Source: a virus | Virus record (IMG/VR): IMGVR_UViG_3300044638_008303 | Coordinates: 1 to 64,000 of that record | Strand: one strand, 5' to 3' | DNA length: 64,000 nucleotides | Position numbers and translations under genes: made by a program | Shown: positions 15,669-62,951 of the stretch, piece after piece | Layout: each line of letters starts with the position of its first letter | How positions within the stretch are numbered: the first letter of the stretch is position 1 | Notes under the pieces: generated by a model | Databases searched by the model: none | The model's input: only the letters and a program-made list of their open reading frames with translations | What the model was told of the DNA's origin: nothing

Positions 15669-15676
15669 TGAACCTA

Positions 15677-19468: not shown

Positions 19469-19469
19469 A

Positions 19470-20066: not shown

Positions 20067-20072
20067 CAGTAT

Positions 20073-20101: not shown

Positions 20102-20102
20102 G

Positions 20103-23942: not shown

Positions 23943-23966
23943 TATTTTATATTTATTAAAAGTTTT

Positions 23967-24605: not shown

Positions 24606-24643
24606 TTTTTAAAAAAAATTGATTTTTGTTATTATTAACTTAT

Positions 24644-26312: not shown

Positions 26313-26313
26313 A

Positions 26314-27045: not shown

Positions 27046-27053
27046 TGAATTTA

Positions 27054-37535: not shown

Positions 37536-37536
37536 T

Positions 37537-38742: not shown

Positions 38743-38746
38743 TAGT

Positions 38747-38775
38747 TTGACATTTTAAGCAAAATTTAAGATACT
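38747..38775 (+). promoter_or_regulatory. sigma70-like promoter, leaderless configuration
   Basis: TTGACA-N17-GATACT ending 6 nt before ATG 38782. Confidence 0.7.
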
Positions 38776-38781
38776 TATCTT

Positions 38782-40527: not shown

Positions 40528-40546
40528 TTATATTATATGATAATTT

Positions 40547-41256: not shown

Positions 41257-44200
41257 TTAAATAACTCCGGTTATTCTAAAATTAAAACCACTAATCCCAG
41301 TATTATTTATATTTTTGATTACCAATTCTGCAACGTCAATATTTGAGTTGGAAGCTGCATTTAATTGATTAAAATAACCAATAGTCGTATTTATAACAAA
41401 TGGGAATTCTCTCTCAAAAAATTGGTTATTAGTATATAAACCACTAATTCCTATATAATTATTTTCTCTAAAATTAATTTGATTCGTTAATGAAAAACCA
41501 GTTGATAAACCCCATATTCCAGAAAAATTTCTAATACCTTGAAAAGTTGACACGTTACCAGTAATATTTCCAGAACCAGAATTATTAGAATAAAATCCAG
41601 TCCCTAAAAGAAGTTCAGAAATATTACCAGTCATAATTGGATCTCTATTTACTCGTTGAGATGTAAAAGTTGAAACTCCAAATTCATCTATATCTAAAAT
41701 TCTTTCTCTAACAATTTTATATAATCTTGGGTAAAAATCAGTTCCAGATAAATAATTTATAATTTCTACACCGGTAGAATTAAAAAGTATATTTATATTA
41801 CCAGAAGAACCACTAATATTGCTATTTAATATAATTGTATCGTTGTCCCCAGTTGTAGCTGTTACTAAAAATAAACCTGGATCATTATTAATTGTATTAA
41901 TAAATACATTATTATTATTAAAATAAATTGGGGGTAAGAAAGAAGTATTATCAGAATTGAATGTTAAATCATTTCCATTTATAGATATAAAGTCAAAATT
42001 ATTTATATTATTATAATTTATAGAAATTATAGCTTCAGAATTAATAAATCCAGTTGGTTCTGGATAATAAGCAAACCGATCTCCAACTGGTGTTCCAGTA
42101 AAAACTAATCGACCAGTAGCATTTAATCTGCCACTAATAGTATTTCCAGAAACAATTCCTGTTATTGGATAATAACCAAGTACATCATATTTTACATACT
42201 CAACATTTTCAATTGTAGAATCAAAAGTTCCATTTGAAACTATTTCATGATACTGTACTGGGGAGCTTGCTAATCTGCCACCAAAAAGTAATTCTTGGTT
42301 AATAACCTCTGTTTTTACTGCTATTGCGTTTCCACTTATAATCCCACGCCCAGTAACAATTCCAGATATTGTTTCAGAAAAATATACAGATTGCGTTAAT
42401 GGGTTGTAAAAATAACGACTATTATCTGTATAAAAAACATTTCCGACACCAAGACCAGATGTTGTTAAAAATCCAGTTCCGCTTTCGCTAATAATTCTTC
42501 CAGAAACTTTATTAAAAATGACTAATTGTTCATTTTCTTCTATTTTTCTAACAAAAGGTGTCGCAAAAAATTTATAAATACCACTATCTTCTGGAATCAT
42601 CCTATAATTCCAAATACCAGAAATTTCTATTGGAAAAATTCCTTCTACATCAATAATATAATCTGCACCGATTGTGCATAGGGGCATAGATTTGTGTTCT
42701 GTTAAACTTCCTGTATCTAAAGTATATAAATTAACCTGTTGTACATAAAATGAGTCTTTTTGTAATAGAAGATCATCTGGATAAGAAATAAATCCAGATA
42801 GAGATACTCGATATTTATCATAAATTTTACTAATATCAAAACCAATATCTTGCGAATTTTGTAAAGAAGAGTTTAATCCTGGAAGATTTAAATTATTAAC
42901 GTTAAAATTCCATCCAGTTCTTATGATATGGTATTCTCCGATTGAATCCCCACCAGCACCGCCAGGTGGCCCTTCACCCGCTGCTTCACCACCCCCTCCT
43001 CCGGCCCCACCATCTCCACACAACTCTTGATTACTATTAGTTTGAACTAAATTACCGCTAGCGTCAATAGTATATTTTTTACATTCTTCTTTTGGAATGC
43101 TTACTGTTATCTCTTTAAAGGTTACGCTCGGCGGACATAAAGGATTTTGATTAAAAGTTACAGTTCGCTGTTGTTCACGTAATATAACATCTTTGCAACC
43201 TGAAGGGCCAGGAGGTTCTTCTCCCGGTTCGGGTAGACCTTCTTCTTCTTCTTCTTCTTCTTCTAAACCGCCACCCTCAGAACCCATAGACCTTTGAATC
43301 CTTTCAATTTTTGCAAAATCTCCAGATAAATTATTACGAACATCTAAAGTCTCCCATAATTGAGTGTTTTTGTTAAATCCTTCTAATTGAATATCTATAG
43401 GAACTAAATAATTCCAGCCTTTAAAAAATTGAGATGGAAGCCTTGTTTGTGAAAATATAGAAATTGAATAAGTCATATCACTTACGTCTTTTATTTGTGG
43501 GTAAGACCTCAAGGATATAAAATCAATTCTATTATTAAAATGACTTATTGGTAACATTCCAGTTTCTCCAGTATTTTTATAAAACTCCATCAGTTTTCCT
43601 GTAACAAATATTCCAGATTCTGTATTTTTTAAACATTCATAAGGATACCAAACTGGATAAGTCTCTAATATATTTACTTTTGCATTTAATTGGTCAACAA
43701 GAGAATCTAATGAATTAAAATCATTAGGATAATATAGTCTAAAACCAGTATTTAAATATGGTGGATAGTTACCCAAATGTAATTCTGAATATAATTTAGG
43801 AAAATTATAATTATAAAAACGCCAATCAATGTAGTCTCCACTAGACCAGTTATTATATAAAAGATATCCACTATAAATTAGATTCGTATATCTAATTTCC
43901 TCTCCACTTATTGAGACAAGACTATTATTAACTTCTGCAGTCTTAATTTCTGTCATTCTTGCTTTGGCAGAAACGCCTGATAAAAATAATTGAAAAGCTC
44001 CAGAATCTCTTAAATCGCCAGTAAAACAAATCTCCTCTGGTTCTGGGGTCCCTGCGACTTCACACTTACGATTTTTTGCGCAAAAATCTTGGAGTTCGTT
44101 AAAAGTTAAAACACTTAAAGTATTAAAATTTTGAGTATATAATATGGGATTTTTTTCTAAATTTAATACGTAAGCTTTTCCAGTTGCCGTGTTTATATCA

Positions 44201-45681: not shown

Positions 45682-45711
45682 TTATATAATTTTCCTTATT
45701 CCTTTATAAAA

Positions 45712-45717
45712 TTACAC
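45712..45717 (-). promoter_or_regulatory. GTGTAA motif followed by an AAGGAATAAGG leader
   Basis: 30 nt before ATG 45681. Confidence 0.5.
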
Positions 45718-45778
45718 TATATTATTTATTATGATACCAATACAATCTACAGAGTTATTAACATAAAATTGTGAATTA

Positions 45779-48700
45779 TTAATATTTAATTAAAGCATCA
45801 ATACCACTCAAAATATTATTATTTAAAGAAATTTTTTCCATTGGAGTATGATATAATGGTTGGTTTAATAGATTATTTTCAAAACCTGGGGGGGTTACAA
45901 TCCCGCCCCCATCTACAGGTGGGTTAATCCCTGGTATAAAACATTCATAACCAGGTTTAATGTCCCAAGAACCATTTGGGCAAACTGGATTAAATTGAAG
46001 ATCTTGACATGACACGCATACAAACTCATTTAATGCGAATGGTGTGAATTTATGTACAGTACTATTACGTCCTATTTCACTACAGCGTCTTTCAGAAGTA
46101 ACTTGATATATACTTTCAAATCTAAGATAACATTCATTAAGCGTTGAGCAACACCAACATTGTCCCGCGCTACCAGCGTCAGTTTCACAACAACCAAACA
46201 CAAAATCTGACAAATTTATACATTCGTTCGCATAAAATTTTAAATCACCGCTGTTAAGAACAGTTAATATATTACGCCCAAAATTAAACTTTATCAAATC
46301 TGATTTTTGATTTGCGATTGTAAATGTTGGTGGCTCATTTACTCCAAGAAGAGAGGCGTCATAAACAGTATATCCATAACCAGAAATAAACTTAATTTTT
46401 GGATCTATTGAGTTATTAAAGCTCACAGCTGGTAGATCAAAACTCTGACCAATTTTATCATCTTGATTGTCTCCATATAAGTCAGGAGAAAATCTTTTCC
46501 AATTATTGTTTTCTTTTGAATATTTTTCAAAAACTACAATACCTGCAGTATTAAACTCTGATTGATCATCAGTACCGATACATCCGATACTACGATAACT
46601 TGGATACCCATCAAATCTTTGTACTAATTGAACTTTATAACCGTATTGCATATTAGATCTCCAACCATGATTTATATCATAATTTGTATCAGTATCAGAA
46701 GGGCCGATAATTAATCCATTAAATTTATTTTTAGAAATAAAAATACTACTAAAATTAGAACTATTAATAGAGTCTATTAAATTCCAAGTTTCTCCGTAAT
46801 CATAAGAAATATAAACATTATCAACTGATGTGGCAATTTGAATTTCTCCATTATCATTTATAGCGATATCAATCCAATTATTTGTAATACTTTTTCCGAC
46901 CCAAGATTGTCCATAATTTCTTGAAACAAAAATTTGGATATTATTACCAACTACCGTTTGAAATTGACCGTCTAAACTCATATCAACTTTTTGGTAAGGT
47001 CTAGAGAATTGACGTAAAACCCAGTTAACTCCATAATCATCAGAAGTATGAATGTTACCATTAAAAGCAACGGCTGTTTGATATTTACCATCTTTTGAAA
47101 TAGAAACACTTCTCCAATTTTTATTAGTTAATAATACAGGATGATTAATAGTAGACCAGTTAACTCCATAATCATTAGATCTATAAATTCTATTATTGGA
47201 AGCAACCGCAATTTGTATTTGACCATTTGAACTAATTTTAATAGACTCCCAAGAATTTACTATTCCTCGAAGCGTCCAATTTTTTCCAAAATTATCTGAC
47301 ACATAGATATTATCATTAAAAGCAACGGCTGTTTGATATTTACCATTTTCTGAAATAGCAACATCTTTCCACTGCTTATTAGTATTAACTACGGGGTGAA
47401 CAACTTCGTTCCATGTAATTCCATAATTTCTGGAAGTAAATACTTTTCCATTATTTACTACTATTGTTTGAAAAATAGCATCATAACTTGATCCAATTTT
47501 ACAATTTCCAAGTAAAAATGGGTTTGGAGATTTTGGTGACAATGAAATCTGATTAAAATTTTTACCAGAATTAATAGAAAACCACCCATTATTAGAATTT
47601 GTAATTAAACCAATAATATAATTATATTTTTCTTTATTTTTATTTAAAGCCGTTGTAATTAATTCGGCATTTACAACCGCTGTATTAAAATCCACTACCG
47701 ACCAAGAGATTCCATAATCCTTAGACTCATAAACACTAGTTAAAGTACAAGCTAATTGAATATCACCACGACCGTTTAAACTAACACTATTCCAACTTAA
47801 TTCTGTAAATGATTCTATCCAAGTGACTCCATAATCATGAGATACAAAAATTTTACTCATTTCAGCTACAGCTGTTTGAAACTGTCCGGTATCACTTATA
47901 TCAAGCTTTTTCCATTGTTTCGCTCCTTGGTATCCTTGAGACCAAGTGGCTCCATAATCATTAGATCTATAAATTTCGCCAATACCAGAAGACTCATTCC
48001 AAGCAAGAGCGGTTTGATATTTACCGTCTTCAGACATTGCAATTGCCGTCCAATTTTTAATAATATTAATCGTAGTTAAGTTATTACCATTATAAACTAA
48101 TATATTTCCATTATTTTCTAATATTGTTTTATATCCGTTATTAGAAGACCAATCTTTCGTAGCTGCCATAGCCGCATCCCTATCATCAATTCCAATAATT
48201 TCTAGATCTGGGTTAAAAGGTCCTGGTGGTAATACCGTAGAAGACAAACCTACAGGATAATAATCTAAAAGAAGTTGGTGTCGAACTAAACGATCCCAAT
48301 AGAAAGAACCTCCCCTTTTTATAAAATTTGGATCATGATTTGTAGGCCCATTATATACATTTCCCCATGCCAACCATAAACTAAGATTATTTGTATTACT
48401 TAGGTCTGGTTTAACTAATGATATGTCTCGCCAAACCCTCCTATCAAAAATCGTAATATCATCATAGTATTGGTTTGTAAAATTGACAACTTTAAATCTA
48501 GACATCGCCGGTGGACTGTCAAAAAAACTGATATCAACAATTCCACCACCCACTAAAACAGGATCAGATATACTAGGCTCTATGAACTCTTCTCTATCGT
48601 CAAAAAATTTAGATTTCCAGTTTGCGAAATAATTTTGTTTAGGATTCGCATAATAAGTTACAGTATTTCTAGCCATTGCTAATAAATTAGCTCTTGAATC

Positions 48701-51394
48701 CAAAATTAAACTACCTCTATTTAAATCTTTCAAAGCTCTAATTGAATTATATGGAATCGGCATTGGATCTGGTAAGATACCTTTAAAACAAGCGTTAGTA
48801 ACTACATCATCTACGCCACCATAATTTGATAAAAGATCAATACAATTATTAATATTCTGATCTGAATAATTTCTCCAATTAGTGACTTGCCAAGGGTATG
48901 GAACATTTTCATAACTATAATATGAAGTTGAAAAATTTTCAGCACATTCATCCAATTCATTACAAATACTAGCGCCTTCTTGAATTAACCATACCGATGA
49001 TCCACCAAAAAAAGGATCGTCCGGAATTGTCCGAATTACTCTCCTACGAATTCTTGAAAAAGGTTCTGATATTCTTAATATATGGTTCCATCTACCATAT
49101 TGATTATTTGGATCCGAATTTAAACTATCTGGAACGTAATACCCCAAAAGACTAGTATTAATATTATTTTGACAAGTCCTAACTATATAAAATCCAGGGT
49201 CTGGAACCCCATTTAAACAAAAACCATAAGCCCTAGATTGGTAACTTTTTGAATTATATGGTTTTGAGGTAGAGCCTAGCGTCGGTAAACTTTCATGCAA
49301 AAGATAAATAATTTCATCTCTAGCTAATACAGCTCGCCATGCTCCATCTTTTTCTGGCATTCTATAAAAAGGAGAGCAAAATGATTGTACCATACCCTTT
49401 TTTCCATTATTGAAAGGGTCTGAAATTATAAAATTAATTTTTTCGTCACTAATTGGAAATGTTTGATTTGTTATTATTCTACCCTCCCATTCGCCTGGCG
49501 GTGGCGGCAGTTCAGACTTGTTACAAGGCTCCATAAGAGGATCTACAGCACCTTCTTTTGTAATTAACCTTGCAAAACTTTTTGTAAGCATATCAACATC
49601 CCACCCATAGGCCATATCTTTAGTATAAATCTCTAAATCTTCACGAAGATTTATATTTTCATATAAAAATGGAGAAATATAAGTATTATAAATTTCCCAA
49701 TTACCATAAGAATCAGGCCTAACAAAATATGGGTATTCTGGTGAGCTAATAAGTGGTGAAGATGTTACCCCATAAGGAAGATAATAAACATAAACTTTAT
49801 TTAAATTTGGTAAACCTACAATCAAAGCATATGAATTAATAGCAACTGAAACCCCTGCATATTCTAAACCTGGGGGGAGATCATAATTTAATTGATTCTG
49901 GGTTTCTACAAAAGATCCATAATCATCATATCGTTGAATTTTAAATGTTTTAACATATATAGATTTTGGTTCGTTTGTATTTATATCATAATAAGCTCCG
50001 GCAATTGCGCAAGATGAATTCCCACAAATATCAAAAGCAATTGAAATTCCAAATCGAGATATTTCTGTCGGAGTAGATGCTGGGCCGTTGATTGTTTGTA
50101 ATTTTTTAAATGAATATTTAGTTTTAACTATCCAAACACCTGTAAAAAAATCTAAACGAGATAAATCAATAGGTTCAATTTCGTATATATTTACCTTATT
50201 ACTATTAGGAATACCGACAATTACTATAGTTCCAAATAAGACTTTCGCATACTCTTTATCTAAACTATAATGTTTCCAGAATAATTTACGAGAAGAAATA
50301 ATTCTATTATCTGGATAAATAGATTGTTGATCAAAACTAAAATCTTCAGAAGATAATTCTGAAAAAAATAATTCATTAGATATTAATATATCTGTAATGT
50401 CTTGATCACCTGGTGTAATTTCAACAATACCCTGGTCCTTATAACATAAATCAGATGCTGATTGAGTACATTCTGGCTCAACAGAGATGTTTCCATTTAA
50501 AGAAATCTTAACAAGACCATTAAAATATGTTTCTTTATAGTAAGTAAATTTGCCACCTATCAATATTTCTGTAACAGGATTCTGACCTATTGATGGAATT
50601 ATATCATAAACAGTATCGTCAAATCCCGAGCCAGATTGAAAATTATTACTTAAATTACCATTTGATTGTAAACTAATAATTCTATTAGCTGGATTATTTT
50701 TATAATTTAAAAATGAGCCACCAATAAAAATTTGATTTTGGCTACGATAATAAATAGCTCGTACTTCATTATCAAACCCAGGGCCAATATCAAAAGTATT
50801 ATCTATATTACCATCTGAGTTTAAAATAACTAGCCTATTTTTATTAATATTATTATAAGTAGTAAATTTTCCACCAACAATAATTCTATTATCATTACTA
50901 ATAGGATGTATATTATAAACATCATCATTGAATCCAGATCCAATATTAAATAATTGATCTATGCTACCATCTTCATTTAAACGAATTATTTTATTTCTGT
51001 TTTGGCCATTATATGAAGTAAATGATCCGCCAATTAGAATTTTACCATCAGATTGCTGGGTAATAAATTCAACATCACCATTAAAACCACTACCAATATT
51101 AAATGATCCATCTATACTACCATCTTCATTTAAACGGATTATTCTATTTCTGTTTTGACCATTATAGGAGGTAAAAGACCCGCCAATTAAGATTTTTTTA
51201 TTTTGTTGTATATATATTTTTTTTACATTATTATTAAAACCAGAGCCAATTTGAAAACTATCATCAATAGTTCCATATTTTGTTAAATATATAATTCTAT
51301 TTGATATAGTACCTCTAAATTGTGTAAACTCTCCGCCCAAAAAAATTCCAGAATCAGTATATGCGGTTGTTAAAACTTTATCATTAAAATGCAT
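45779..51394 (-). CDS. Large tail fibre/adhesin-like protein (1871 aa) with delta-60 and Asp-box/BNR propellers and a Cys-rich C-terminus
   Basis: Repeats DGKILIGGSFTSYNG.NRN.IIRLNEDGSID at the N-terminus; many SxDYGxTW repeats. Confidence 0.8.
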   Translation of the reverse strand: MHFNDKVLTTAYTDSGIFLGGEFTQFRGTISNRIIYLTKYGTIDDSFQIGSGFNNNVKKIYIQQNKKILIGGSFTSYNGQNRNRIIRLNEDGSIDGSFNIGSGFNGDVEFITQQSDGKILIGGSFTSYNGQNRNKIIRLNEDGSIDQLFNIGSGFNDDVYNIHPISNDNRIIVGGKFTTYNNINKNRLVILNSDGNIDNTFDIGPGFDNEVRAIYYRSQNQIFIGGSFLNYKNNPANRIISLQSNGNLSNNFQSGSGFDDTVYDIIPSIGQNPVTEILIGGKFTYYKETYFNGLVKISLNGNISVEPECTQSASDLCYKDQGIVEITPGDQDITDILISNELFFSELSSEDFSFDQQSIYPDNRIISSRKLFWKHYSLDKEYAKVLFGTIVIVGIPNSNKVNIYEIEPIDLSRLDFFTGVWIVKTKYSFKKLQTINGPASTPTEISRFGISIAFDICGNSSCAIAGAYYDINTNEPKSIYVKTFKIQRYDDYGSFVETQNQLNYDLPPGLEYAGVSVAINSYALIVGLPNLNKVYVYYLPYGVTSSPLISSPEYPYFVRPDSYGNWEIYNTYISPFLYENINLREDLEIYTKDMAYGWDVDMLTKSFARLITKEGAVDPLMEPCNKSELPPPPGEWEGRIITNQTFPISDEKINFIISDPFNNGKKGMVQSFCSPFYRMPEKDGAWRAVLARDEIIYLLHESLPTLGSTSKPYNSKSYQSRAYGFCLNGVPDPGFYIVRTCQNNINTSLLGYYVPDSLNSDPNNQYGRWNHILRISEPFSRIRRRVIRTIPDDPFFGGSSVWLIQEGASICNELDECAENFSTSYYSYENVPYPWQVTNWRNYSDQNINNCIDLLSNYGGVDDVVTNACFKGILPDPMPIPYNSIRALKDLNRGSLILDSRANLLAMARNTVTYYANPKQNYFANWKSKFFDDREEFIEPSISDPVLVGGGIVDISFFDSPPAMSRFKVVNFTNQYYDDITIFDRRVWRDISLVKPDLSNTNNLSLWLAWGNVYNGPTNHDPNFIKRGGSFYWDRLVRHQLLLDYYPVGLSSTVLPPGPFNPDLEIIGIDDRDAAMAATKDWSSNNGYKTILENNGNILVYNGNNLTTINIIKNWTAIAMSEDGKYQTALAWNESSGIGEIYRSNDYGATWSQGYQGAKQWKKLDISDTGQFQTAVAEMSKIFVSHDYGVTWIESFTELSWNSVSLNGRGDIQLACTLTSVYESKDYGISWSVVDFNTAVVNAELITTALNKNKEKYNYIIGLITNSNNGWFSINSGKNFNQISLSPKSPNPFLLGNCKIGSSYDAIFQTIVVNNGKVFTSRNYGITWNEVVHPVVNTNKQWKDVAISENGKYQTAVAFNDNIYVSDNFGKNWTLRGIVNSWESIKISSNGQIQIAVASNNRIYRSNDYGVNWSTINHPVLLTNKNWRSVSISKDGKYQTAVAFNGNIHTSDDYGVNWVLRQFSRPYQKVDMSLDGQFQTVVGNNIQIFVSRNYGQSWVGKSITNNWIDIAINDNGEIQIATSVDNVYISYDYGETWNLIDSINSSNFSSIFISKNKFNGLIIGPSDTDTNYDINHGWRSNMQYGYKVQLVQRFDGYPSYRSIGCIGTDDQSEFNTAGIVVFEKYSKENNNWKRFSPDLYGDNQDDKIGQSFDLPAVSFNNSIDPKIKFISGYGYTVYDASLLGVNEPPTFTIANQKSDLIKFNFGRNILTVLNSGDLKFYANECINLSDFVFGCCETDAGSAGQCWCCSTLNECYLRFESIYQVTSERRCSEIGRNSTVHKFTPFALNEFVCVSCQDLQFNPVCPNGSWDIKPGYECFIPGINPPVDGGGIVTPPGFENNLLNQPLYHTPMEKISLNNNILSGIDALIKY

Positions 51395-51414
51395 AAATTA
51401 TTATAATATTAAAA

Positions 51415-51420
51415 TTACAC
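51415..51420 (-). promoter_or_regulatory. GTGTAA motif (putative late promoter)
   Basis: 20 nt before ATG 51394. Confidence 0.5.
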
Positions 51421-51435
51421 CATTTAAATTTAATT

Positions 51436-54400: not shown

Positions 54401-57132
54401 GAGCTACTCGACGAGCTACTCGACGAGCTACTCGACGAACTAGAAAAAACTCTACACCAATTTGGATCAACAATATTATAAACCTCATCATATACCCATA
54501 ATTTAGTTCCTATCGAAAAACTGTTACATATTCGTGGCGGTTCGCAAGATAACCCTAATCTTATATCTCTAAAATTATTAAAATAATTTACAGAATTAAT
54601 GTAATATGTGCCGTTATAATTATTATTCCCTAAAATTAATATTTGATCACCAACAGAAGATCGGATACTTGGTATAATAGATGGGTTTAAATATAATAAT
54701 CTTACCATTTTCTGCCCAAAATTTTGTGTATTACATATTTGAAATTCTAAACCGTAATTAAAATTATCTCCTGAAAAGATTGGGTTTTGACTATTTATAA
54801 AAGTAATTGAACCGGATTTTTCAACAGAATATTGTTTTTTAGGCCAGTTTGAAAAACATTCCGACCAACAGTTCGTAATACTTGAATTATTAATAAAATA
54901 AAAATCTGGATTATCTATTGTAAAATAAATAATTGTTGGGTCACATGGGTATAATAAATTAGATTCTATACTAATATCGGTAATAGAAGGCACTATACCA
55001 GTGTCAAATATGGTAAATGGTTCTAATGTTGTTAATGTTTCTTCCCAACCCCCGCCATTATAATTGTTAGGAATTGGTTGTAAAATTGGATCTAAACCGC
55101 TTAAAAAGCCACTTTCAAATTCTAATTTTACATTGGGAACATCAAAAAGATGATAAAATTTTCCACTACCAGATGGCGTTTCCCCTAATCTGGAAATTCT
55201 TGTTCTACCGCCGGTTGGATGTCCGTCATATAATTGATAGTTCCCACTTATAAGTTGAAAATAACTATTTTCAAAAAATCTTTCTTCTTCCCCAGAAATT
55301 GGTCGTAATATATATCCAGTATATTGGAAATTATAAGTTGTATCATCTTTAAAACATTGATTAGCAGTAACAAAAGATGGGATTTCATTAATTTCTATAG
55401 TTTCCGGAATTTTAGGATCACAAAAAGTTATATTTAAACCTGTTGAAGCTATACCATCGAAAAAGCCAGTAGAACTATTAAGAACAACTGAACCATCGAC
55501 AGGATTAAATCCTGCCCCATCTTGATTCCAAAATAAAAAAGATTCTCCAGTTATTATTCCAACATAAGGTTTAAAAATAGTCCATTTACCAGGTTCAAAA
55601 TTTAGTAAATAATCTCCGATAAGTTTACCGCTTGTTCTTCCCCCAGTTGCTAAAGCCCCCCCAGTAATTTTAAAAAATCCAGTAACATTCCCCGTAGGAG
55701 AAAGAGGCGGAGATACTAATCTGATAGTTTCATACTCAGATTGGTCAAAAAATAAAAATAATCCGCCAGTATACCGAAAAAATTTTGTTGCAAAACCAGT
55801 TCTTGTAGCAGTTTCATAATCATAGTCAAAAGAATATTGGGAACATATAGAATTACTTAAATTTGAAGAACAGATAGCGTTATAAGCTGATTCACTAATT
55901 GGAGGTGGTACAAAATTACCGCTACTATTAAGATACCAACCTCTTTTAGCATCTGGCACGACACCTGTTACCAAACCAGAATAAAAACCTGTTAACAAAC
56001 CACCTTGAAAATTTATAAACCCACTAAATAAAATATTACCCTTACTACCCCGTGCTGAAATATTTGTTAATGAATATATGTCTCCTATCCCAGAAGCTAA
56101 TTTATCATATTTTTTTTCTATATATTGATCATCTGCAATTCTAAAAAAGCTTGCAATTCCAGAGCCTGTTCCGTATTCATAATAATTTCTTAGCGTATTG
56201 AATCCGCTAACCAACCCCGATACGTTTCCATATAAAAAACCGCTCCCTTCTATAAAACCAGATACAGTTTGGTTTGTTAAAAAAGCAGTTCTTTCTATTG
56301 GTATAAAATAATCCCCAGTAAAACCACTAATATATTTTAACTGAATAGATAATTCAATATCTTTTTCATCGTAAAAAGATAAAATATAATTTACAGTATT
56401 ATTGTTAGCAATATTATCTTGTTCCGGCCCAAAAGAAAGATATTGAATTTGGTCTTCTGGCGTTTCTAATATAAAACCAGAAACAGTAATATCAAAATTT
56501 AAAACTCCTATATTTGTATATAGAGTAATTGGTAAGGAAGAAGTTCCAATTATTAAGCCCGTATTAACTAAATTAAAAGAACCAGAGCTAGAAGGATTAA
56601 TTAAAAAATTATTTGGTAAATTGAGAAAAAAATTATTATCTGATAAAAATCCCGAAAATACATTTATAACACTGGAACCATTATTAAAAATAGTTATTGG
56701 TATGTTGGTATTTTGATAAATATATTCTTTAAAAGTATCTATAAAAAATACGGGTCTTTTCCCATAAATTATAAAATTATTAACATCAATAAAATTAGGA
56801 TTACCACTTAAAATAAAAGAAGATAGACTAAAATCGTTTTTATTTTCAGCTCCATAAAGAAGACTATTATTTTTATATAAGTCAAAATAATTTTGACCTA
56901 TATTACCGGAAAAATTTATATTTTCGTTACCAGCATAATTACCAATAAGATAATTGTTTTTATTATAAATTTTATTATTTTTTAAATTAAAAATATGTAA
57001 AAGCTGGTTTTCTCCAGAAAAATAAAAATTAAAATTTTGATTGCCAGTTACTTCTTGGGGTAGCAAATTTAAATTCCAACTAATTTTATTTTGTGGATAT
57101 ATACTTTTCGAAAATATGCCAGAAATTGTCAT
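51436..57132 (-). CDS. Large tail/virion protein (1898 aa): [S/T]G-rich N-terminus, poly-Ser linker, Asp-box and FG-GAP propellers
   Basis: SHDYGKTW/SNDYGITW repeats and FG.S...IGAP...GAVY repeats. Confidence 0.8.
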   Translation of the reverse strand: MTISGIFSKSIYPQNKISWNLNLLPQEVTGNQNFNFYFSGENQLLHIFNLKNNKIYNKNNYLIGNYAGNENINFSGNIGQNYFDLYKNNSLLYGAENKNDFSLSSFILSGNPNFIDVNNFIIYGKRPVFFIDTFKEYIYQNTNIPITIFNNGSSVINVFSGFLSDNNFFLNLPNNFLINPSSSGSFNLVNTGLIIGTSSLPITLYTNIGVLNFDITVSGFILETPEDQIQYLSFGPEQDNIANNNTVNYILSFYDEKDIELSIQLKYISGFTGDYFIPIERTAFLTNQTVSGFIEGSGFLYGNVSGLVSGFNTLRNYYEYGTGSGIASFFRIADDQYIEKKYDKLASGIGDIYSLTNISARGSKGNILFSGFINFQGGLLTGFYSGLVTGVVPDAKRGWYLNSSGNFVPPPISESAYNAICSSNLSNSICSQYSFDYDYETATRTGFATKFFRYTGGLFLFFDQSEYETIRLVSPPLSPTGNVTGFFKITGGALATGGRTSGKLIGDYLLNFEPGKWTIFKPYVGIITGESFLFWNQDGAGFNPVDGSVVLNSSTGFFDGIASTGLNITFCDPKIPETIEINEIPSFVTANQCFKDDTTYNFQYTGYILRPISGEEERFFENSYFQLISGNYQLYDGHPTGGRTRISRLGETPSGSGKFYHLFDVPNVKLEFESGFLSGLDPILQPIPNNYNGGGWEETLTTLEPFTIFDTGIVPSITDISIESNLLYPCDPTIIYFTIDNPDFYFINNSSITNCWSECFSNWPKKQYSVEKSGSITFINSQNPIFSGDNFNYGLEFQICNTQNFGQKMVRLLYLNPSIIPSIRSSVGDQILILGNNNYNGTYYINSVNYFNNFRDIRLGLSCEPPRICNSFSIGTKLWVYDEVYNIVDPNWCRVFSSSSSSSSSSSSSSSSSSSSSSSSSSSSSSSSSSSIINNLATVYDINSDQCSYSIAGEFSGFQTEDYLYPANRFLNLKDCLNSGKFIPSLPFECTSGEFDPDDDFPFERVVDTTYYYRSNWNKSLNISSGGQYILTVRNGSELLISHDYGKTWFQPDYNYKDIDGTIIHPKMSFPNYIPFTNMKYTAMSSNGQHMAVTGPFGVFFVSNDYGITWARKNLSDVSRWGNFPFNDITFSDKFSYGPVDISDNGRFITTSVSDYFVCTGDLSPNNCINYYGLLFSLTGNICVSSNSGETWRYKGVRGYSPIAESNSWASIKMSRDGQNQIAVCETADTGIGGVLLSARANRRCPPIFVSNNYGVTWSPKYLTNRVGQTAYTFDCGSPCGALVSEQYQPPCPDDNSAAPPDGYTGHGRMWASAAISNDGKTMFAGVLSAGRIWDPTQPGGYANGYSRRPDARKEMGLYVSYNSGKTWNQYSDPFNNFGGNTYYGKLNSFDINLSGPVTDIVLSPPPAPCCIRTLKSIFTGNPGTFQNSVPTFLYPGNHNNRTIDLRLTNEFRNYSKIISSYDNKYSICLIKNGPMIMSSNSGNNFEIVEIPSSFNLHKAITEKKLSLEESSSEQWLSNNSSFLKDGYSIDTSYSVYTDQKVILLGRGDLNTCQLYSRDSRSINYLGLIRSFTGPVLNSEFGYSVATHPTEQIIFIGAPNDSNRGAVYVYENINNNWILKQTLTGSSNSRFGHSIYFGKNNKNDLFVGAPKDSDNSLNQGAVYYYTGNSVSNWGFKQKLSSTVNNGNFGLNLQTNFSGDVLIVGGTGNLNTGCLVYSYNNNNNTWSLKNSLTGSFNSRFGNSISMDENGNVITIGAPYDSTNGLQAGAVSIYTGDKNIGWSFYNKLTGAPNSLFGSKIITYGKNYYDTGPSLRGAINITVSSPGYNQNSGAVWTYRNNIMEPFKWYLYDILLNKYPNSTLGTTIFYPSDYLGFFNNGNIKTRLWIGTSYLNSGFLNFY
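54340..54444 (-). repeat. 12-bp tandem repeat (GAGCTACTCGAC x8 plus a partial copy) encoding about 35 Ser
   Basis: Eight units at 54341-54436, one with a G>A variant, in frame within the 1898-aa gene. Confidence 0.97.
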
Positions 57133-60086
57133 AAAGTTAATACTTTAGTATTACTAGTTCTTTGACTGGTTCTGGTATATAAATCTTTTAATATTTGATA
57201 ATTACCACCCGCGCCAACGCCCCCGCCCATACTAACTGGTTTTATATATTTATCTAGTAAACTAGATAAAGAAGTACCCATTCCGGGCGGTTGAAATAAC
57301 TTATCACTAAATTCATACTGTGTAAAAACGCCATCACTTGAAATAATTAAACTTAAAGAAGATAATCCCTCTTCAACTTTAAAATTTTCAGGAATTAAAC
57401 CCGCAAGTTTAAAACTTATAAATTTTAATGGATCTGAATATGAATAAGATTGCATATTAGCTAAATCTTTTACATAAGCCTCTAATAATGCTTCATTTGG
57501 GATACAACTTCCACCAAATAAATTAAGAAAATTTTCTGCAATATCATTTATGTAATAATCAACGGAATAAACTTTTGTTGGATTTTTTACTGAAACACTA
57601 TTAATTAATTCTATTTTTGGAATAAAAACAGGTATATCATCAGAGCATTTGACAAAAACTCTGTATCCTTTTGTGTAACTACTATTTAAATAACTTGGAT
57701 TAGGGTCGCTAAGATTCGCTTGAGTAGTAAAAGCTTGCGCCATATCTTGGGTTTGTTCACTAAAGGACTGTACTGGGGGAAAAATTTTCATTCCAGGTAC
57801 AGAAATTTCTATACAGGAAGAAGATTGAAGGCCCCATTTACCACGATTTACTAAGATCGTTTTTCCGTCCGCCCCCTGTCTTTCTAAATAATGATTTTCT
57901 GCTATTTCTTGATTAGGATGTTTATCAATTAATTGGGCGCTTAATTTCCAATCTTTTAACTCTTTTACTATAAAAAGTTTTATACTTGTATCGTATTTTG
58001 CTTGAGGATACAAATCGAATAATAAATTCGGCCTGCCATCAACTGTACCAAATTTTTTAAAACATTGATCCCCATGCCAATTGAATAAAGTTTGATACCA
58101 TTTAGTTGCATATTCTAGTTCTGGAAGCCATTTCGTATTGGCTCTTTCCCATAATAAAAAACCTTTAGTTGAATATATCTCAGGTTTTTTTTCTTTTACC
58201 GTTGATTGAAGAGTATTTTTTCTTTCATCTCGTTTGATTTTATTTTCACTAAGCCCTGCTTTAAATTTTGATTTAAGAAATCTTCCTAGTATAGATTGTT
58301 TCGCATGTCCAAAATTAAAAATCTTAATATTATCCATATTTTGACCAATTTTTATAAAATTACCGCTACCATCTTCTGGAGGACCCTCTACATTACATTC
58401 TGATTTAGCGTTACTACTATTGGGAACATTAGTTGAAAATAAACGGTAGAAATGTTTTCCTAAAAAATTAGTAGCTAAATTTTGTTCAGTTTCTATCATT
58501 TGGCTCCAACCATCTTCATTTACTTTCGCAATAAAAAAATAATATTTTGGATCTTCTGGAGTGCCACCGCCAAGCATATAAAATTCTCTTTGTTGTCGTG
58601 TCATCAAAGTATCTCTTATTAAAAAAAACTTATTTTGCTGTTCTCCTATTAGTTTTGGATGAAAAACGTTGTAAACTTCCATATCACCAAAAAATTTTAA
58701 TGTTTTTTTGTCAGCAGGTTCAGTTGCTGGACTCCCATCTTCTTCATAATTATCTGGGGAACTTTCAAAATAAGAATCGGTAATAGTCATATCACTTGAT
58801 GTCGTGGTATTCCCAATAGTTCTAGTATTAGATGCGTTGTTAGAGGAACCTGGTGATTGACTACTTGGTGAAGAAGCGGGTGCTGAAGAACTACTAGATG
58901 GCGCAGAACTAGAAGAAGAATTGGATGAGCTAGAAGACCCTGAAGAACTAGAAGAGCCAGCAGACATTTTATAATTATCGTTTAATACTTTATGATTTAA
59001 AATTCCATAATAAGAAAACCAAAAAAAACTATTTCTTAAATCTACGCTATAATAATTAAGAGTTACGCCTATTTCTTTTGCTACTAAATCACTTTTTATT
59101 ACTGCATTCGGTACGGCTGAATTATTTGATTTTCCATCAAGAGTTGATAATTCTGCAAAACTTAAAGGTTTTAAATTTTGATAGGTATCATTTTCACAAC
59201 TATATGAACGAGGACCCCCAGGTTTGTTAAAAGGACCAATAAAACCTCTACTATAAGTACCTTCTAAAGTTGTTTTATATTTTAAATCAGTAACATTTTT
59301 TATGTTTTTAGCCGTTTCATAAGATATTAATTTTGAATTAGTAATTAAAACTGTTCTATCAATAATTTTTAACTCATTTTTTAGCGCATCGTAATAAAAT
59401 GTTAAGCCAAGGTCATCCATCCAACTATTTAAGACATTTCTTAAATTTCCAACATGTTGAGCTTTGGGAAGATATACTTTAGATGCATCAAAAGTAATTA
59501 TTATTTCTGTAACTTTTGCTTTAATTTGATTAATTAAATTATGAAATGTATAGTAAACAGGGTAGTTTTCCCAGTTAGTAGTTTCCGCATCGCATATTGA
59601 CTTATATTTAGTTGGCGGCATAAATGGACATGGGTCACATGGATCAATCTGAAGTTTTGTTTCTGTATAATCCACAATAGAATCTAAATTTTTGTCACAG
59701 GGATGATACTGTTTACCAACAAGTATAAGATTAGATGGATTAGAGTTAGCGCTCCTTTTTCCATGTATAGTATTTAAGCCAACAAACCATTGATCTAATT
59801 TTATAGATTTATCAACATATTCTAATTTTAATACTTTTTGCTCAGTAGTTGAGTCTAATTCTGTACTTATTAAGTAACCTTTAAATGTAAAGTCTCCAAC
59901 TGTAATCGTTTCTTCTTTTTCTAAATCAGGTTCGGGCGGATTATAAGTTCCAAGTTTATTTGCAATCGTCACACTTAATTTACTTGGACTACTACCACCA
60001 TTAAATTGCCAATTAAAGTCTATAATACCATCATCGCCTTGTAATCCAGGAACTGAAATTTTATCAATTGTAATTTGTTGTGACAT
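57129..60086 (-). CDS. Putative baseplate hub/tail protein (985 aa) with a Ser-rich insert
   Basis: Hub-like beta-rich N-terminus and SAGSSSSSGSSSSSNSSSSSAPSSSSSAP insert. Confidence 0.6.
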   Translation of the reverse strand: MSQQITIDKISVPGLQGDDGIIDFNWQFNGGSSPSKLSVTIANKLGTYNPPEPDLEKEETITVGDFTFKGYLISTELDSTTEQKVLKLEYVDKSIKLDQWFVGLNTIHGKRSANSNPSNLILVGKQYHPCDKNLDSIVDYTETKLQIDPCDPCPFMPPTKYKSICDAETTNWENYPVYYTFHNLINQIKAKVTEIIITFDASKVYLPKAQHVGNLRNVLNSWMDDLGLTFYYDALKNELKIIDRTVLITNSKLISYETAKNIKNVTDLKYKTTLEGTYSRGFIGPFNKPGGPRSYSCENDTYQNLKPLSFAELSTLDGKSNNSAVPNAVIKSDLVAKEIGVTLNYYSVDLRNSFFWFSYYGILNHKVLNDNYKMSAGSSSSSGSSSSSNSSSSSAPSSSSSAPASSPSSQSPGSSNNASNTRTIGNTTTSSDMTITDSYFESSPDNYEEDGSPATEPADKKTLKFFGDMEVYNVFHPKLIGEQQNKFFLIRDTLMTRQQREFYMLGGGTPEDPKYYFFIAKVNEDGWSQMIETEQNLATNFLGKHFYRLFSTNVPNSSNAKSECNVEGPPEDGSGNFIKIGQNMDNIKIFNFGHAKQSILGRFLKSKFKAGLSENKIKRDERKNTLQSTVKEKKPEIYSTKGFLLWERANTKWLPELEYATKWYQTLFNWHGDQCFKKFGTVDGRPNLLFDLYPQAKYDTSIKLFIVKELKDWKLSAQLIDKHPNQEIAENHYLERQGADGKTILVNRGKWGLQSSSCIEISVPGMKIFPPVQSFSEQTQDMAQAFTTQANLSDPNPSYLNSSYTKGYRVFVKCSDDIPVFIPKIELINSVSVKNPTKVYSVDYYINDIAENFLNLFGGSCIPNEALLEAYVKDLANMQSYSYSDPLKFISFKLAGLIPENFKVEEGLSSLSLIISSDGVFTQYEFSDKLFQPPGMGTSLSSLLDKYIKPVSMGGGVGAGGNYQILKDLYTRTSQRTSNTKVLTL

Positions 60087-62951
60087 TTAATTATTATATA
60101 TTATATCTGGTAACTGTTCTAAAAATAGAACCCCAGTTTTTAGATTTAAACTTGATAATTCATTATAATCTTCATTATACGATTGTCTTATACCATTTAC
60201 ATATATTTCCGACAATCTTTCGTAATATTTTTGTGGAGAATAAGAGTAAGGCTTTCCACTTTCTATATATGAATAATCGTAATTTTTAGGAACAAAGCAT
60301 AAATTACCAGTAATTCCCGTATAGAAAGAATAATTATTAAAAGTAATGTTATTTGAAGAATAAACTAACCCCCCAGCGTTAACTGATGAACTTGGAGCGC
60401 CCTGTACAAAAATTGACCCATCATTATTTAAGCTAAGATGTTTTCCATGATATGGAGAAACCTGACCGCTAGGAATTTCTTGATGAAAAGCCCACCCAAT
60501 ATTTAAATTACCTGTAAATATTATAGTACTATCACCTTCATTTTTTGCTGTAGCTATAATTGTTCCATTATTATTAATATCAATACTCGAACCAATTATA
60601 CCAGTAATTACTTGTTTTAATACCCATTCATTATTTAAATCTCCTGTATAAATAGAAATACCAGAAGAACTCCCGAAATTACCGATTACACACACATTAC
60701 CCATGCCATTACATGCGACATCCCATCCAAAGTAAGGAATCTGAGTACTAGGTTTTAATATGTTTTTAATACCCCAACCAACTAAAGAATTTCCAGTATA
60801 TATAATTGCTGACCCCGTAAAATTACTCTGATCATTTGGCGCTCCTACTACTAAAATTGTACCGTCATTATTGGTATCCATAGAGTTACCTATTTGCTTA
60901 CAATTATTAATTGAACTTAACTGTTGTTTGAAATTCCATCCATTATTTATATCACCGGTAAAAATAACTACAGTTCCATTTCGATCATTATTAAAAGGAG
61001 CCCCAACTGCTAAAACTGTACCGTCATTATTAGATGTAGTTGCATAACCAAACCATCCTACAGCATCATAAATAATTTCAATTTCTTCATCCTCAATTAT
61101 TTCAATAGATTCCTCATAAGGTAAATCATTTTTATATTTCCATCCATTATTTGCATCACCAGTATAAATAGAAACCTTATTTATTCCGAAGCTACCTATC
61201 ATCAATAAATTAGCACTACTATTAGTTGCAAGACTATTACCAAAAAATTCATTATTTAGGATACCAGTGATTGTTTGTTTTACATTCCAGCCAAGAATTG
61301 AATTCCCAGTGTATATAGCTACAACTCCTCTAGCAGTATTTTGTAAATAATCGCCCACTATTATTACAGATTCGTCATTATTTATTCTACTACTTCTATA
61401 ACTCCTACTATTAAAAATATTCTGTAACTCATCTCTTAAATCATAATTATTATCAATACTATAATGTATATTTTCAGTTAATTTTTGCCCATTAAAAAAT
61501 ATATTAAAACTACTATTTGATAGCGATGGGATAGAAATAGATGATTCTATATATAGATCTTCATAACATACGGTTTCCCCGGTATTAAAATCAACAAAAA
61601 TAGAGTCTGAAGATGGTTGGCCATATAAATTAAAAGGAACAATTTTTCCGTTTTCTACGCCATAATCATTTTTAACAATTCTTATTAAATCTGGATTGTA
61701 AGAATTACTTAAATCAATAAGTTCTCCAGACGTTTGATATTGCCCATTAATAAATAAAGATTCGTTTTCTATAGTGCGGTTGGGTAAATAGTAACCATAA
61801 TCAAACCTATTTTGAGATAAAAATAAATTTTTATTATTAATTTTACTTATATCTCCAGTAATTAAACCAATTTCTATTAAATCGTCATTTATTTTATCTG
61901 TTGTAAATTTTATATAATCTTTGTTATAATTATTAAATTTATTCAAATTTCTTTTCAAAGAAATCGTTAAAGGTTCATTAAAAAATTGAAAAAATGAACC
62001 GGTAAGAAGAGTAAAGCCATATAACGGTCTTAAACCGTATAATGGGCTATTAGTATATCCAACTGTCTGAAAACCCCAATCATCATATATAACACCTGTT
62101 GCAGTTCTTTGAAAACCTGTAATATATAATCCGCTTCCAGTAATTTCATATCTTCGTCCTGTGATTCCCGTCACAAGACCTGACGCTAAAGCGCCTCCAG
62201 ACGCATAAGTATCATGAATAAAGCCTGTATAAATAAAAGGTAATTCTCGATTAAATAATCCAGAACCCACAATAAAATTATCGATATACCCCAAAAATGG
62301 TTGATTATTATTATATGAATTAATTGACTCAGGGTTATATCCTATATATAAATTTTTTGGATTGTATATAAAGTTTGAATTAATATTAAAATTAGAATTA
62401 ATTACCGAATTTTGAACAAAATTAAAGTAGCCAAAATTTACAGTGTTATTAGAAATATTTAAATATACACTAGATTTATTTGATAAATTAGACTCTTGAA
62501 CAAAAACTCTTGAACCAGATGGTTCAAAATATTCAAAATAAAGATTATTATTAGCCGTAACACCAAATTCAAAACCTTGATTAACATTTATAAAGTAAGT
62601 ACTACCATCTTCATTATATTGTAAAATATTATCTTTTGTAATACTAGATATTAAAGTACTAGATCCAACCCTTATTTTTTCAAAATCTATAATAAAAGTA
62701 GAATCATTATAATTTATAAAATTATTTATACCAGTTATTCTTGCGTAATTACCAGAAAAATATCCACGACCACTTGTTGACCATAATTCATAAGGAAAAG
62801 GAATTATATTTGCAGATAAACGCCCAGAATTAATTCCATTATTTTTTATAGTAGACCCGGTTTCTAAAAAGTTATATCTTAAAACTAATTTAGAATAAAT
62901 ATCTGGACGGGCAAACTGTATAAAATATAGATTATCTTCAATTTTATTCAT
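60087..62951 (-). CDS. Virion protein (954 aa) with a LamG/ConA-like N-terminus and an inserted FG-GAP propeller
   Basis: LYIG...FLGYIDNF; FG...LAVGAP...G.V.IFTG repeats; NG(Q/I) tail-protein repeats. Confidence 0.75.
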   Translation of the reverse strand: MNKIEDNLYFIQFARPDIYSKLVLRYNFLETGSTIKNNGINSGRLSANIIPFPYELWSTSGRGYFSGNYARITGINNFINYNDSTFIIDFEKIRVGSSTLISSITKDNILQYNEDGSTYFINVNQGFEFGVTANNNLYFEYFEPSGSRVFVQESNLSNKSSVYLNISNNTVNFGYFNFVQNSVINSNFNINSNFIYNPKNLYIGYNPESINSYNNNQPFLGYIDNFIVGSGLFNRELPFIYTGFIHDTYASGGALASGLVTGITGRRYEITGSGLYITGFQRTATGVIYDDWGFQTVGYTNSPLYGLRPLYGFTLLTGSFFQFFNEPLTISLKRNLNKFNNYNKDYIKFTTDKINDDLIEIGLITGDISKINNKNLFLSQNRFDYGYYLPNRTIENESLFINGQYQTSGELIDLSNSYNPDLIRIVKNDYGVENGKIVPFNLYGQPSSDSIFVDFNTGETVCYEDLYIESSISIPSLSNSSFNIFFNGQKLTENIHYSIDNNYDLRDELQNIFNSRSYRSSRINNDESVIIVGDYLQNTARGVVAIYTGNSILGWNVKQTITGILNNEFFGNSLATNSSANLLMIGSFGINKVSIYTGDANNGWKYKNDLPYEESIEIIEDEEIEIIYDAVGWFGYATTSNNDGTVLAVGAPFNNDRNGTVVIFTGDINNGWNFKQQLSSINNCKQIGNSMDTNNDGTILVVGAPNDQSNFTGSAIIYTGNSLVGWGIKNILKPSTQIPYFGWDVACNGMGNVCVIGNFGSSSGISIYTGDLNNEWVLKQVITGIIGSSIDINNNGTIIATAKNEGDSTIIFTGNLNIGWAFHQEIPSGQVSPYHGKHLSLNNDGSIFVQGAPSSSVNAGGLVYSSNNITFNNYSFYTGITGNLCFVPKNYDYSYIESGKPYSYSPQKYYERLSEIYVNGIRQSYNEDYNELSSLNLKTGVLFLEQLPDIIYNN

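Follow-up and report, generated by a model that had tools for sequence, protein, structure and literature searches.

The window, by which we mean the whole 64,000-nucleotide stretch analysed (positions 1 to 64,000 of IMG/VR record IMGVR_UViG_3300044638_008303), derives from an uncultured low-GC phage and encodes, on its minus strand, a tail-fibre operon on which a plus-strand trio of genes converges. Ser-Gly and Thr-Gly pairs, counted together as [S/T]G and tested against 2000 shuffles of each protein, occur at about two to three times chance in p1474, p1898 and p954 (z 6-9), three of the phage's five giant tail proteins, and in relatives from an aquatic phage clade that share the excess. The genes and modules concerned are the following, with observed and expected [S/T]G counts in brackets.

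2677..3015, plus strand: p112, a stand-alone copy of one of the fibre modules
20506..28019, minus strand: variable sugar-nucleotide/glycosyltransferase island
35619..39540, plus strand: conserved trio convergent on the fibre operon, comprising GT1_638 (35619-37535), GT9_401 (37537-38742) and p252 (38782-39540)
39541..41245, minus strand: p328 and p232, two small, conserved proteins whose genes follow p1474
41257..45681, minus strand: p1474, enriched in [S/T]G, the final giant gene in the tail-fibre operon
41260..42681, minus strand: p1474 residues 1001-1474, conserved C-terminal module, enriched (z 4.0-5.9 in three segments)
43582..44781, minus strand: p1474 residues 301-700, enriched unannotated module (21 vs 5.2, z 7.7)
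45779..51394, minus strand: p1871, DUF5122 propeller and BNR/Asp-box protein (Pfam PF17164, PF15899), not enriched (13 vs 20.7)
51436..57132, minus strand: p1898, enriched giant tail protein
51439..52452, minus strand: p1898 residues 1561-1898, FG-GAP region (PF14312, 45.8 bits), mildly enriched (z 2.2)
52453..54132, minus strand: p1898 residues 1001-1560, BNR/Asp-box region, not enriched (11 vs 9.0, z 0.8)
54853..57132, minus strand: p1898 residues 1-760, main enriched module (42 vs 12.6, z 9.2)
57129..60086, minus strand: p985, conserved tail-module protein, depleted (2 vs 11.1, z -3.2)
60087..62951, minus strand: p954, fibre or baseplate protein, enriched
60372..61451, minus strand: p954 residues 501-860, predicted FG-GAP beta-propeller with one conserved Y/F-T-G per blade (z 2.1)
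61962..62231, minus strand: p954 residues 241-330, four heptads of the form I-T-G-x-x-x-x, then a return strand with periodic Gly (z 4.9)
62954..63991, minus strand: p345, N-terminus cut by the window end, not enriched (1 vs 3.2)

Over their full lengths p1474 contains 64 [S/T]G against 23.8 expected (z 9.4), p1898 70 against 32.8 (z 7.6) and p954 35 against 14.3 (z 6.2), counts that none of the 2000 shuffles matched for any of these proteins. The most over-represented dipeptides of p1474 are SG and TG; TG holds that position in p1898 and p954, with SG ranking fourth in p1898 and reaching merely 12 against 8.9 expected in p954. Ser or Thr precedes 39-45% of all glycines in these proteins, and the reverse pairs GS and GT showed no enrichment in them. 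Because the excess survives shuffling confined to blocks of 15 or 30 residues as well as shuffling of whole proteins, overall and local composition are ruled out as its cause; S, T and G content, proposed in a preliminary description as the check on the signature, fails to explain it. A DNA-level cause is also ruled out, since Ser, Thr and Gly codon use is the same as in the rest of these genes, and the hexamers that encode the pairs number 64, 70 and 35 in frame 0 (p1474, p1898 and p954, respectively) versus one to five in other frames. Selection on the excess thus operates at the level of the peptide and not of the DNA.

The excess goes beyond composition and is real, but it is not pervasive, as the preliminary description had called it. 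The runs quoted there from the 1474-, 1898- and 954-residue proteins are present in those genes, all three strongly enriched, whereas p1871 and p985 are depleted and BNR domains carry no excess. Pooled counts for p1871, p985, p345 and p328 fall well below expectation (17 vs 40, z -4.3); p328 is itself depleted (1 vs 6.0, z -2.4), p232 is near expectation (4 vs 3.0, z 0.6), and homologues of both occupy the same position in four related loci (L012-L015). Relatives of p985 have z-scores of -2.3 to 0.4, those of p345 are about 520-550 residues long, and depletion in other tail proteins is not general across the clade (z <= -2 in just five of 187 ORFs on the p252 side of the trio). The 41 non-tail ORFs left of position 39540 are neutral (73 [S/T]G vs 70.8), in agreement with the earlier impression that replication enzymes are free of the signature. 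The 112-residue protein at 2677, also thought to carry it, does not do so significantly (4 vs 1.9); it is 31-34% identical to the C-terminal domain of p954-like 714-residue proteins in two related loci (L005 and L007). The general O-glycosylation sequon of Bacteroidota, D-[S/T]-[AILVMT], was not over-represented in any of the seven tail proteins (z -1.2 to 0.6), and N-x-[S/T] was at expectation in the tail proteins.

When located along the proteins, the excess falls in unannotated beta-rich modules, is mild in FG-GAP blades and does not extend to BNR regions. p1474 had no match in Pfam or PHROG, and all 23 members of its family alignment are enriched (z 5.7-17.9). Its C-terminal module retains 46-57% identity across hosts with differing N-termini, many of its sites being [S/T]G in 87-100% of the alignment; the AF2 model of this module is poor (pLDDT 47). 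Homologues of residues 1-760 of p1898 in nine loci have z-scores of 7.8-12.8. The BNR region of p1898, which scores just under the PF02012 cut-off (26.6 vs 27 bits; about seven Asp-boxes listed), matches by BLAST that of p1871, for which PF15899 and PF02012 matches and about ten S-x-D-x-G-x-T-W boxes are listed; the FG-GAP region of p1898 is 31-32% identical to residues 495-840 of p954.

All 30 homologues of p954 are enriched (z 5.4-10.2), and its AF2 model has a pLDDT of 70.7. The heptads at residues 241-330, in which T264-G265 and T278-G279 are invariant across the 30 homologues, are modelled as a long hairpin at low confidence (pLDDT about 45-54); matches of this block to streptavidin (E about 1 or more) were treated as compositional. 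It is the sole periodic stretch among the window proteins, which rules out a single periodic repeat behind their excess. Residues 501-860 form a beta-propeller, judging from a confident AF2 model, Foldseek matches to WD40 propellers and integrin alpha headpieces (E 2e-11 to 2e-10) and precomputed PF14312 (FG-GAP_2) matches in homologues. As the preliminary description had noticed, FG-GAP blades carry the pair at a fixed position: Y/F-T-G occurs in six of six p954 blades, is 86-100% conserved among homologues and, in the model, places T-G among the last strand residues ahead of a hairpin.

A single homologous domain common to p1474, p1898 and p954 is ruled out at the sensitivity of BLAST and hhalign, the enriched modules having no detectable mutual homology (hhalign probability <= 5%). 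Within families, by comparison, homologues as distant as about 26% identity retain the [S/T]G sites, both residues being kept in position at 26-35%. Ser and Thr exchange at most family-level sites (20 of 25 for the p954 family, 30 of 48 for that of p1474), and Thr makes up 49% of sites and Ser 51%, Thr being favoured relative to composition. Where Gly is lost it is replaced by N (2.7-fold over background) or A (about 5-fold). Lost Ser or Thr in the p1474 family gives way to N, D or P (1.9-2.6-fold); the pattern is less clear in the p954 family, in which such losses lead mostly to I, L, V or N. Flanking residues are hydrophobic or beta-branched, with F or Y at position -1 in about 19% of sites and no extended consensus. 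Relatives display the excess in at least three repeat classes: an array of period 7, collagen-like repeats and modules without periodicity. The same period as in p954 dominates a 2856-residue ORF of one relative (L096), for whose heptad array a PDB sequence search found no match, and in two others (L043 and L050) the excess is due to period-3 G-X-[S/T] repeats, with a Pfam Collagen match in L043.

We favour, with about even confidence, the explanation that the excess marks a short structural turn element rather than a chemical tag. The element would consist of a hydrophobic beta-strand residue, Ser or Thr, Gly and then further strand, the Gly occupying a positive-phi position in a tight turn, bulge or solenoid corner and the adjacent hydroxyl capping the backbone in ST- or Asx-turn fashion. 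ST-turns, Asx-turns and G1 beta-bulges place a hydroxyl- or carboxamide-bearing residue ahead of a positive-phi Gly at a strand end; in ST/Asx-turns the side-chain oxygen of residue i is hydrogen-bonded to the backbone NH of residue i+2, and N, D or P can replace S/T, and N or A the Gly. The excess, its selection at the level of the peptide, and the conservation, substitutions and distribution of the sites are shown directly; the turn geometry of the phage sites is inferred. The replacements of Gly by N or A and of Ser/Thr by N, D or P indicate a turn role, and since N, D and P cannot be O-glycosylated these losses count in its favour. Further support comes from the positional conservation with Ser/Thr exchange at 26-35% identity, from the flanking residues, the Thr preference and the strand-end placement of T-G before a hairpin, and from the resolution of the relatives' excess into repeats of period 7 or 3. 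We envisage a favoured strand-ender in fast-evolving, shuffled beta-rich fibre modules of one large uncultured aquatic phage clade, which would occur singly in FG-GAP hairpins, as 7-residue I-T-G arrays in p954 (hugely expanded in L096) and irregularly in p1474 and the N-terminal module of p1898.

Several observations weigh against this explanation. Seventeen structural proteins of T4, including the gp5 beta-helix, have z-scores of -1.6 to 2.1, and the Ag43 passenger has a z-score of -0.8, so that the excess is generic neither to fibres nor to beta-solenoids; an analogy to the V-x-G triple beta-helix of gp5 (4 vs 4.1 expected in the helix) and a generic property of beta-solenoid adhesins, as judged by Ag43, are both ruled out. 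Recurrence of the pair in non-homologous modules and in ten unlinked clusters (see below) resembles a shared selective pressure more than one fold. The turn that usually serves instead, N-G, is strongly avoided in just the enriched proteins yet used freely in p1871; losses of Ser/Thr in the p954 family go mostly to I, L, V and N; and the densest modules were modelled at low pLDDT (45-54 and 47).

A possible, though doubtful, alternative is that Ser/Thr-Gly at strand ends serves as a minimal motif at which a conserved, clade-wide soluble GT1-GT9-p252 module O-glycosylates the fibres. The putative enzymes of the trio would act on fibres in the host cytoplasm in the manner of TibC or Aah, the turn element would be both structural and a recognition motif, and the motif would have been selected into unrelated modules (heptad arrays, collagen-like repeats, propeller hairpins and irregular beta modules). 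GT1_638 matches PF00534 (weakly) and DUF4214. GT9_401 matches PF01075 (33.4 bits, cut-off 22) only over profile positions 106-229, in residues 31-145, and its NCBIfam matches to LPS heptosyltransferases are weak and far below cut-offs. p252 belongs to a phage-only family without known function. PDB sequence searches with GT1_638 and p252 gave no match, and the ESM Atlas returned no named relatives. The GT9 gene was present in 17 of 17 related records checked, with GT1 or p252 wherever sought, and is encoded by 185 viral contigs.

Gene arrangement argues for this alternative. Every relative examined has the trio abutting the fibre operon at its 3' end, and in all 32 fibre-seeded loci that extend far enough downstream the distance to the fibre stop codon is about 30 nt or less. 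Among 518 ORFs around the trio, 51 have z-scores of at least 5, all but one on the p252 side (the exception is truncated at the L085 edge), and 32 of these lack similarity to the window's families; the enriched ORFs come from ten clusters unlinked by BLAST, among them I-T-G arrays with a period of 7 residues and collagen-like G-X-[S/T] repeats. GT1 and p252 are 80-88% identical where fibres are just 34-47% identical. The window also encodes sugar-nucleotide enzymes, its variable island containing a GDP-mannose 4,6-dehydratase, an FkbM methyltransferase, a fusion of HAD and nucleotidyltransferase, a UDP-GlcNAc 2-epimerase, GT2 and GT1, together with a weak GT-D match. A preference for hydroxyls with avoidance of N-G across unrelated modules is equally in keeping with it. 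The preliminary description also named as refuting the case of buried turns of one beta-helix fold shared with phages lacking glycosyltransferases, yet no phage free of these enzymes was found to bear the excess: T4, which lacks them, does not, and a search for trio-less relatives with the neutral p985 marker yielded only trio-bearing phages.

What speaks for glycosylation nevertheless comes down to gene adjacency and the precedent of TibC and Aah. One relative (G011) keeps the trio beside tail giants without enrichment (z -1.5 to 0.6), 23 of 80 loci have no nearby ORF above z 3, and the enriched state switches at least four to seven times on the GT9 tree and does not track GT9 phylogeny. Three complete enriched genomes lack the accessory GT-D and GT2 genes, which rules out either as a second glycosyltransferase gene tracking the excess. 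Retention of the trio without enrichment, the repeated changes of state and the dispensability of accessory glycosyltransferases all support the turn element instead. A phmmer search of GT9_401 against all PDB chains, a set that we take to include TibC, gave no match at E up to 1; N, D and P are tolerated as replacements; p1871 and p985, likewise exposed tail proteins, lack the motif; and the trio could act on DNA, the host envelope or other virion proteins. The preliminary suggestion that a motif kept across different folds reflects selection for a recognition site accordingly stands as to selection, the excess exceeding composition, acting at the peptide level and recurring in non-homologous modules, while the motif is no more than a candidate modification site.

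It is improbable that the excess arose secondarily because chemically labile Asn-Gly and Asp-Gly turns, prone to deamidation and isomerisation, are selected against, with Ser/Thr as a substitute turn-former in long-lived extracellular fibres: the strong depletion of N-G in p1474 (3 vs 13.9 expected), L096 (10 vs 47) and L043 (4 vs 15.6) fits such a pressure, but p1871 in the same virion favours N-G (22 vs 14.9), T4 gp37 uses it freely, and the restriction to some modules is left unexplained. Most improbable of all is that an aromatic or aliphatic residue with S/T-G forms repeated carbohydrate-binding surfaces recognising host glycans, which would suit the F or Y at -1 and the lectin-like, BNR and FG-GAP domains of distal fibre proteins, since the sites are conserved across phages expected to differ in receptor-binding regions and show no extended binding-site consensus.

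If the turn element is purely structural, it represents a building block of phage fibres not recognised before, one form of which is an I-T-G repeat of 7 residues without Pfam or PDB match, and distal tail proteins could be found cheaply in metagenomes by this sequence signature. Should the pairs instead be glycan acceptors, they would imply a widespread, sequence-predictable glycosylation of receptor-binding virion fibres, a phage analogue of autotransporter heptosylation in which the sequon is structural and two residues long, bearing on host recognition, virion stability, and fibre annotation and engineering.

Among known systems, the GT9-related autotransporter heptosyltransferases TibC and Aah act on TibA, AIDA-I and Ag43, beta-helical adhesins in whose strand-loop-strand motifs they modify Ser only, and TibC heptosylates Ser-313 within N-S-G-G (PMC4358343). 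The likeness lies in a GT9-type gene adjoining that of a giant beta-rich surface protein (here a trio convergent on the fibre operon) and in a mapped acceptor, Ser-313, that precedes Gly in a turn. The candidate phage system differs in GT9_401, whose GT9 match is confined to the C-terminal part (half) of the profile and which shows no similarity to TibC that could be detected, in the near-equal and freely exchanging use of Thr and Ser, and in an [S/T]G excess that Ag43 lacks. In mycobacteriophages, as summarized in PMC12619734 from Freeman et al. 2023, glycans are O-linked to the S/T-rich C-termini of capsid and tail-tube subunits; phage-encoded glycosyltransferases beside structural genes are common to both systems, whereas the candidate sites here are spread inside fibre modules, the capsid and tube genes lying outside the window. 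Collagen-like G-X-Y proteins of bacteria and phages, with Thr or Ser at Y, are resembled by L043 and L050, the window's own proteins containing no collagen-like repeat. BNR/Asp-box propellers share their Asp-boxes with p1871 and p1898, in regions without excess. FG-GAP (PF14312) propellers share their blades with p954 and p1898, the T-G coming after the end of the FG-GAP_2 match and being conserved in the p954 family. From ST/Asx-turns, which to our knowledge do not normally produce a protein-wide dipeptide excess, the phage sites depart in frequency (39-63% of Gly follow Ser or Thr here, T4 fibres and Ag43 being at expectation); in their substitutions at both residues and in their position at strand ends, they fit.

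The window is low in GC (~30%) and is part of a phage genome for which no near relative was found among GenBank phages. Its giant tail proteins (p1474, p1898, p954, p1871 and p985) are encoded in a tail operon on whose end the three genes GT1_638, GT9_401 and p252, here termed the trio, converge.

Features of the fibre region
41257-63991, minus strand: distal part of the tail operon, encoding p345 (cut by the window end), p954, p985, p1898, p1871, p1474, p232 and p328
35619-37535, plus strand: GT1_638
37537-38742, plus strand: GT9_401
38782-39540, plus strand: p252

Gene order in nine related viral contigs runs tape measure, ~520-aa protein, p345-like, p954-like, p985-like and p1898-like. p345 (62954-64000) runs past the window end and its relatives have ~520-550 aa; it is therefore incomplete here. 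A gene for a subtilisin-family (S8) protease lies directly downstream of that for p112, a free fibre-module gene (window 2677-4694).

The excess of Ser-Gly and Thr-Gly pairs ([S/T]G) is a real, peptide-level and conserved signature of particular fibre modules. Compared with 2000 shuffles each, p1474 has 64 pairs against 23.8 expected (z 9.4), p1898 70 against 32.8 (z 7.6) and p954 35 against 14.3 (z 6.2), counts attained by 0/2000 shuffles; 39-45% of Gly in these proteins is preceded by Ser or Thr. SG and TG are the most over-represented dipeptides of p1474, while TG ranks first in both p1898 (SG fourth) and p954 (SG just 12 against 8.9). The reverse pairs GS and GT showed no excess in the same three proteins, and shuffling restricted to blocks of 15 or 30 residues left the [S/T]G excess unchanged. 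Because synonymous codon use at the pairs is the same as in the rest of the genes, and the encoding hexamers fall almost exclusively in frame 0 (64, 70 and 35, versus 1-5 in other frames), selection acts on the peptide.

Contrary to the preliminary description, the signature is not pervasive: p1871 has 13 pairs against 20.7 expected and p985 two against 11.1, and these two pooled with p345 and p328 are depleted (17 against 40, z -4.3). The 112-aa protein at 2677 (p112), cited there as a carrier, has a non-significant count of its own; it is a free-standing copy of a domain that p954-like proteins in the related loci L005 and L007 carry as a fusion. That replication enzymes lack the motif was borne out: over the replication and sugar region, with its 41 ORFs, the count is neutral (73 against 70.8). 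p328 (39541-40527) is Gly- and Ser-rich, with seven G-S and no S-G, each against 3.8 expected.

Within the enriched proteins the excess is domain-specific.

[S/T]G excess by region
p1898 residues 1-760: z 9.2
p1898 BNR region: z 0.8
p1898 FG-GAP region: z 2.2
p954 residues 241-330: z 4.9
p954 propeller: z 2.1
p1474 residues 1-300: z -0.6
p1474 residues 301-700: z 7.7
p1474 residues 1001-1474: z 4-6

BLAST and hhalign detected no homology between the three enriched module families (probability 5% or less). A single ORF at L007:14677-16614 fuses the p1898 N-terminal module (residues 1-352) with the p1474 C-terminal module (residues 1092-1473), which indicates that modules are shuffled among fibre genes. 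Flanks of the pairs are hydrophobic or beta-branched; neither an extended consensus nor a fixed spacing was found around them in window proteins, except in p954, which has four I-T-G-x-x-x-x heptads.

Enrichment is conserved in 30/30 p954 homologues (z 5.4-10.2) and 23/23 members of the p1474 family (z 5.7-17.9). T264-G265 and T278-G279 of p954 are invariant; at most family-level sites S and T exchange, and lost Gly becomes N or A. Lost S/T is replaced preferentially by N, D or P in the p1474 family, and by I, L, V or N in the p954 family. The AF2 model of p954 (pLDDT 70.7) is confident at a beta-sandwich (~residues 70-240) and the FG-GAP propeller, which Foldseek groups with WD40 and integrin alpha propellers; T-G in the blades occupies the last strand residues before the hairpin. 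The heptad block is modelled with low confidence as a long hairpin, and may fold only as an oligomer. The model of the p1474 C-terminus (pLDDT 47) was too poor for use. This substitution pattern and strand-end position, together with the persistence of the enzymes where the excess is absent, lead us to favour a structural turn element, a reading to which we give an even chance.

Rather less probable is that the pairs are acceptor sites, candidates for glycosylation. Recurrence of the excess across modules would fit this, as would the avoidance of N-G in enriched proteins but not in p1871, and the tight synteny of fibre genes with a GT9-type module. In a fibre-seeded search the trio was complete and ~30 nt or less from the fibre stop in 32/32 loci with enough downstream DNA. 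In genome G011, however, the trio is retained where a complete tail module ends, and the giants of that module (1717, 1787, 2214 and 2939 aa) are non-enriched (z -1.5 to 0.6). In addition, 23/80 GT9 loci have no nearby ORF above z 3, and the enriched state changes at least 4-7 times when mapped on a quickly built GT9 tree. Three complete enriched genomes lack the accessory GT-D and GT2 genes, and no solved chain showed detectable similarity to GT9_401. Relatives lacking the trio were sought via the neutral p985 marker; none was found.

The excess extends across a large phage clade and several repeat classes. In 80 GT9 loci there are 518 ORFs with a length of 300 aa or more. Of these, 51 have z values of 5 or higher and, one edge-truncated ORF excepted, lie on the p252 side. 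The 51 form 10 BLAST clusters, 32 of them lack BLAST or HMM similarity to the window's families, and the ORFs from loci L096, L043 and L050 described below belong to this set. GT9 was found in all related records checked (185 viral contigs carry relatives), and GT1 or p252 wherever sought.

Several further features of these loci were observed. At least 185 IMG/VR contigs retain the trio (window 35619-39540). Where the fibres of two phages share just 34-47% identity, their GT1 and p252 still share 80-88%; p252 belongs to a phage-only family with no assigned function. In locus L096, a 2856-aa ORF (11909-20479, minus strand) has 262 [S/T]G sites with a strong 7-residue period of I-T-G repeat arrays, 63% of Gly preceded by S/T, and 10 N-G against 47 expected; it matched nothing in Pfam or PDB, and the array may be an undescribed fibre repeat. 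Giant fibre ORFs adjoining the trio at L043:12374-16966 and L050:12039-19718 (minus strand) carry period-3 collagen-like G-X-[S/T] repeats, the former with a Pfam Collagen match. GT1_638 residues 541-585 weakly match the heptosyltransferase III N-terminus and GT9_401 just the C-terminal half of the GT9 profile, so that, judged from these matches, the GT9 fold appears split over two genes (window 37240-37960); retention of this layout in all relatives excludes a sequencing frameshift. Grouped at 20506-23942 are genes for a fused HAD-phosphatase and nucleotidyltransferase, an FkbM methyltransferase and a homologue of GDP-mannose 4,6-dehydratase, whose products might synthesize a nucleotide-activated heptose or 6-deoxy sugar. 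The sole GT9-family match in the genome collection, a 13.9-kb contig (NZWA01000027.1) with the whole trio, is binned in a Flavobacteriales MAG, a weak hint of the host group.

TibC transfers heptose onto Ser-313 in N-S-G-G (PMC4358343), a precedent for modification at such a pair, but it is restricted to Ser. Seventeen T4 structural proteins, all fibres and the gp5 beta-helix included, lie at z -1.6 to 2.1 with 10-25% of Gly preceded by S/T, and this lack of excess in classical fibres would also suit acceptor sites. The Ag43 passenger, a known substrate of TibC/Aah, likewise has no excess (15 against 17.9 expected). With T4 and Ag43 both at expectation, the signature is not generic to fibres or beta-solenoids.
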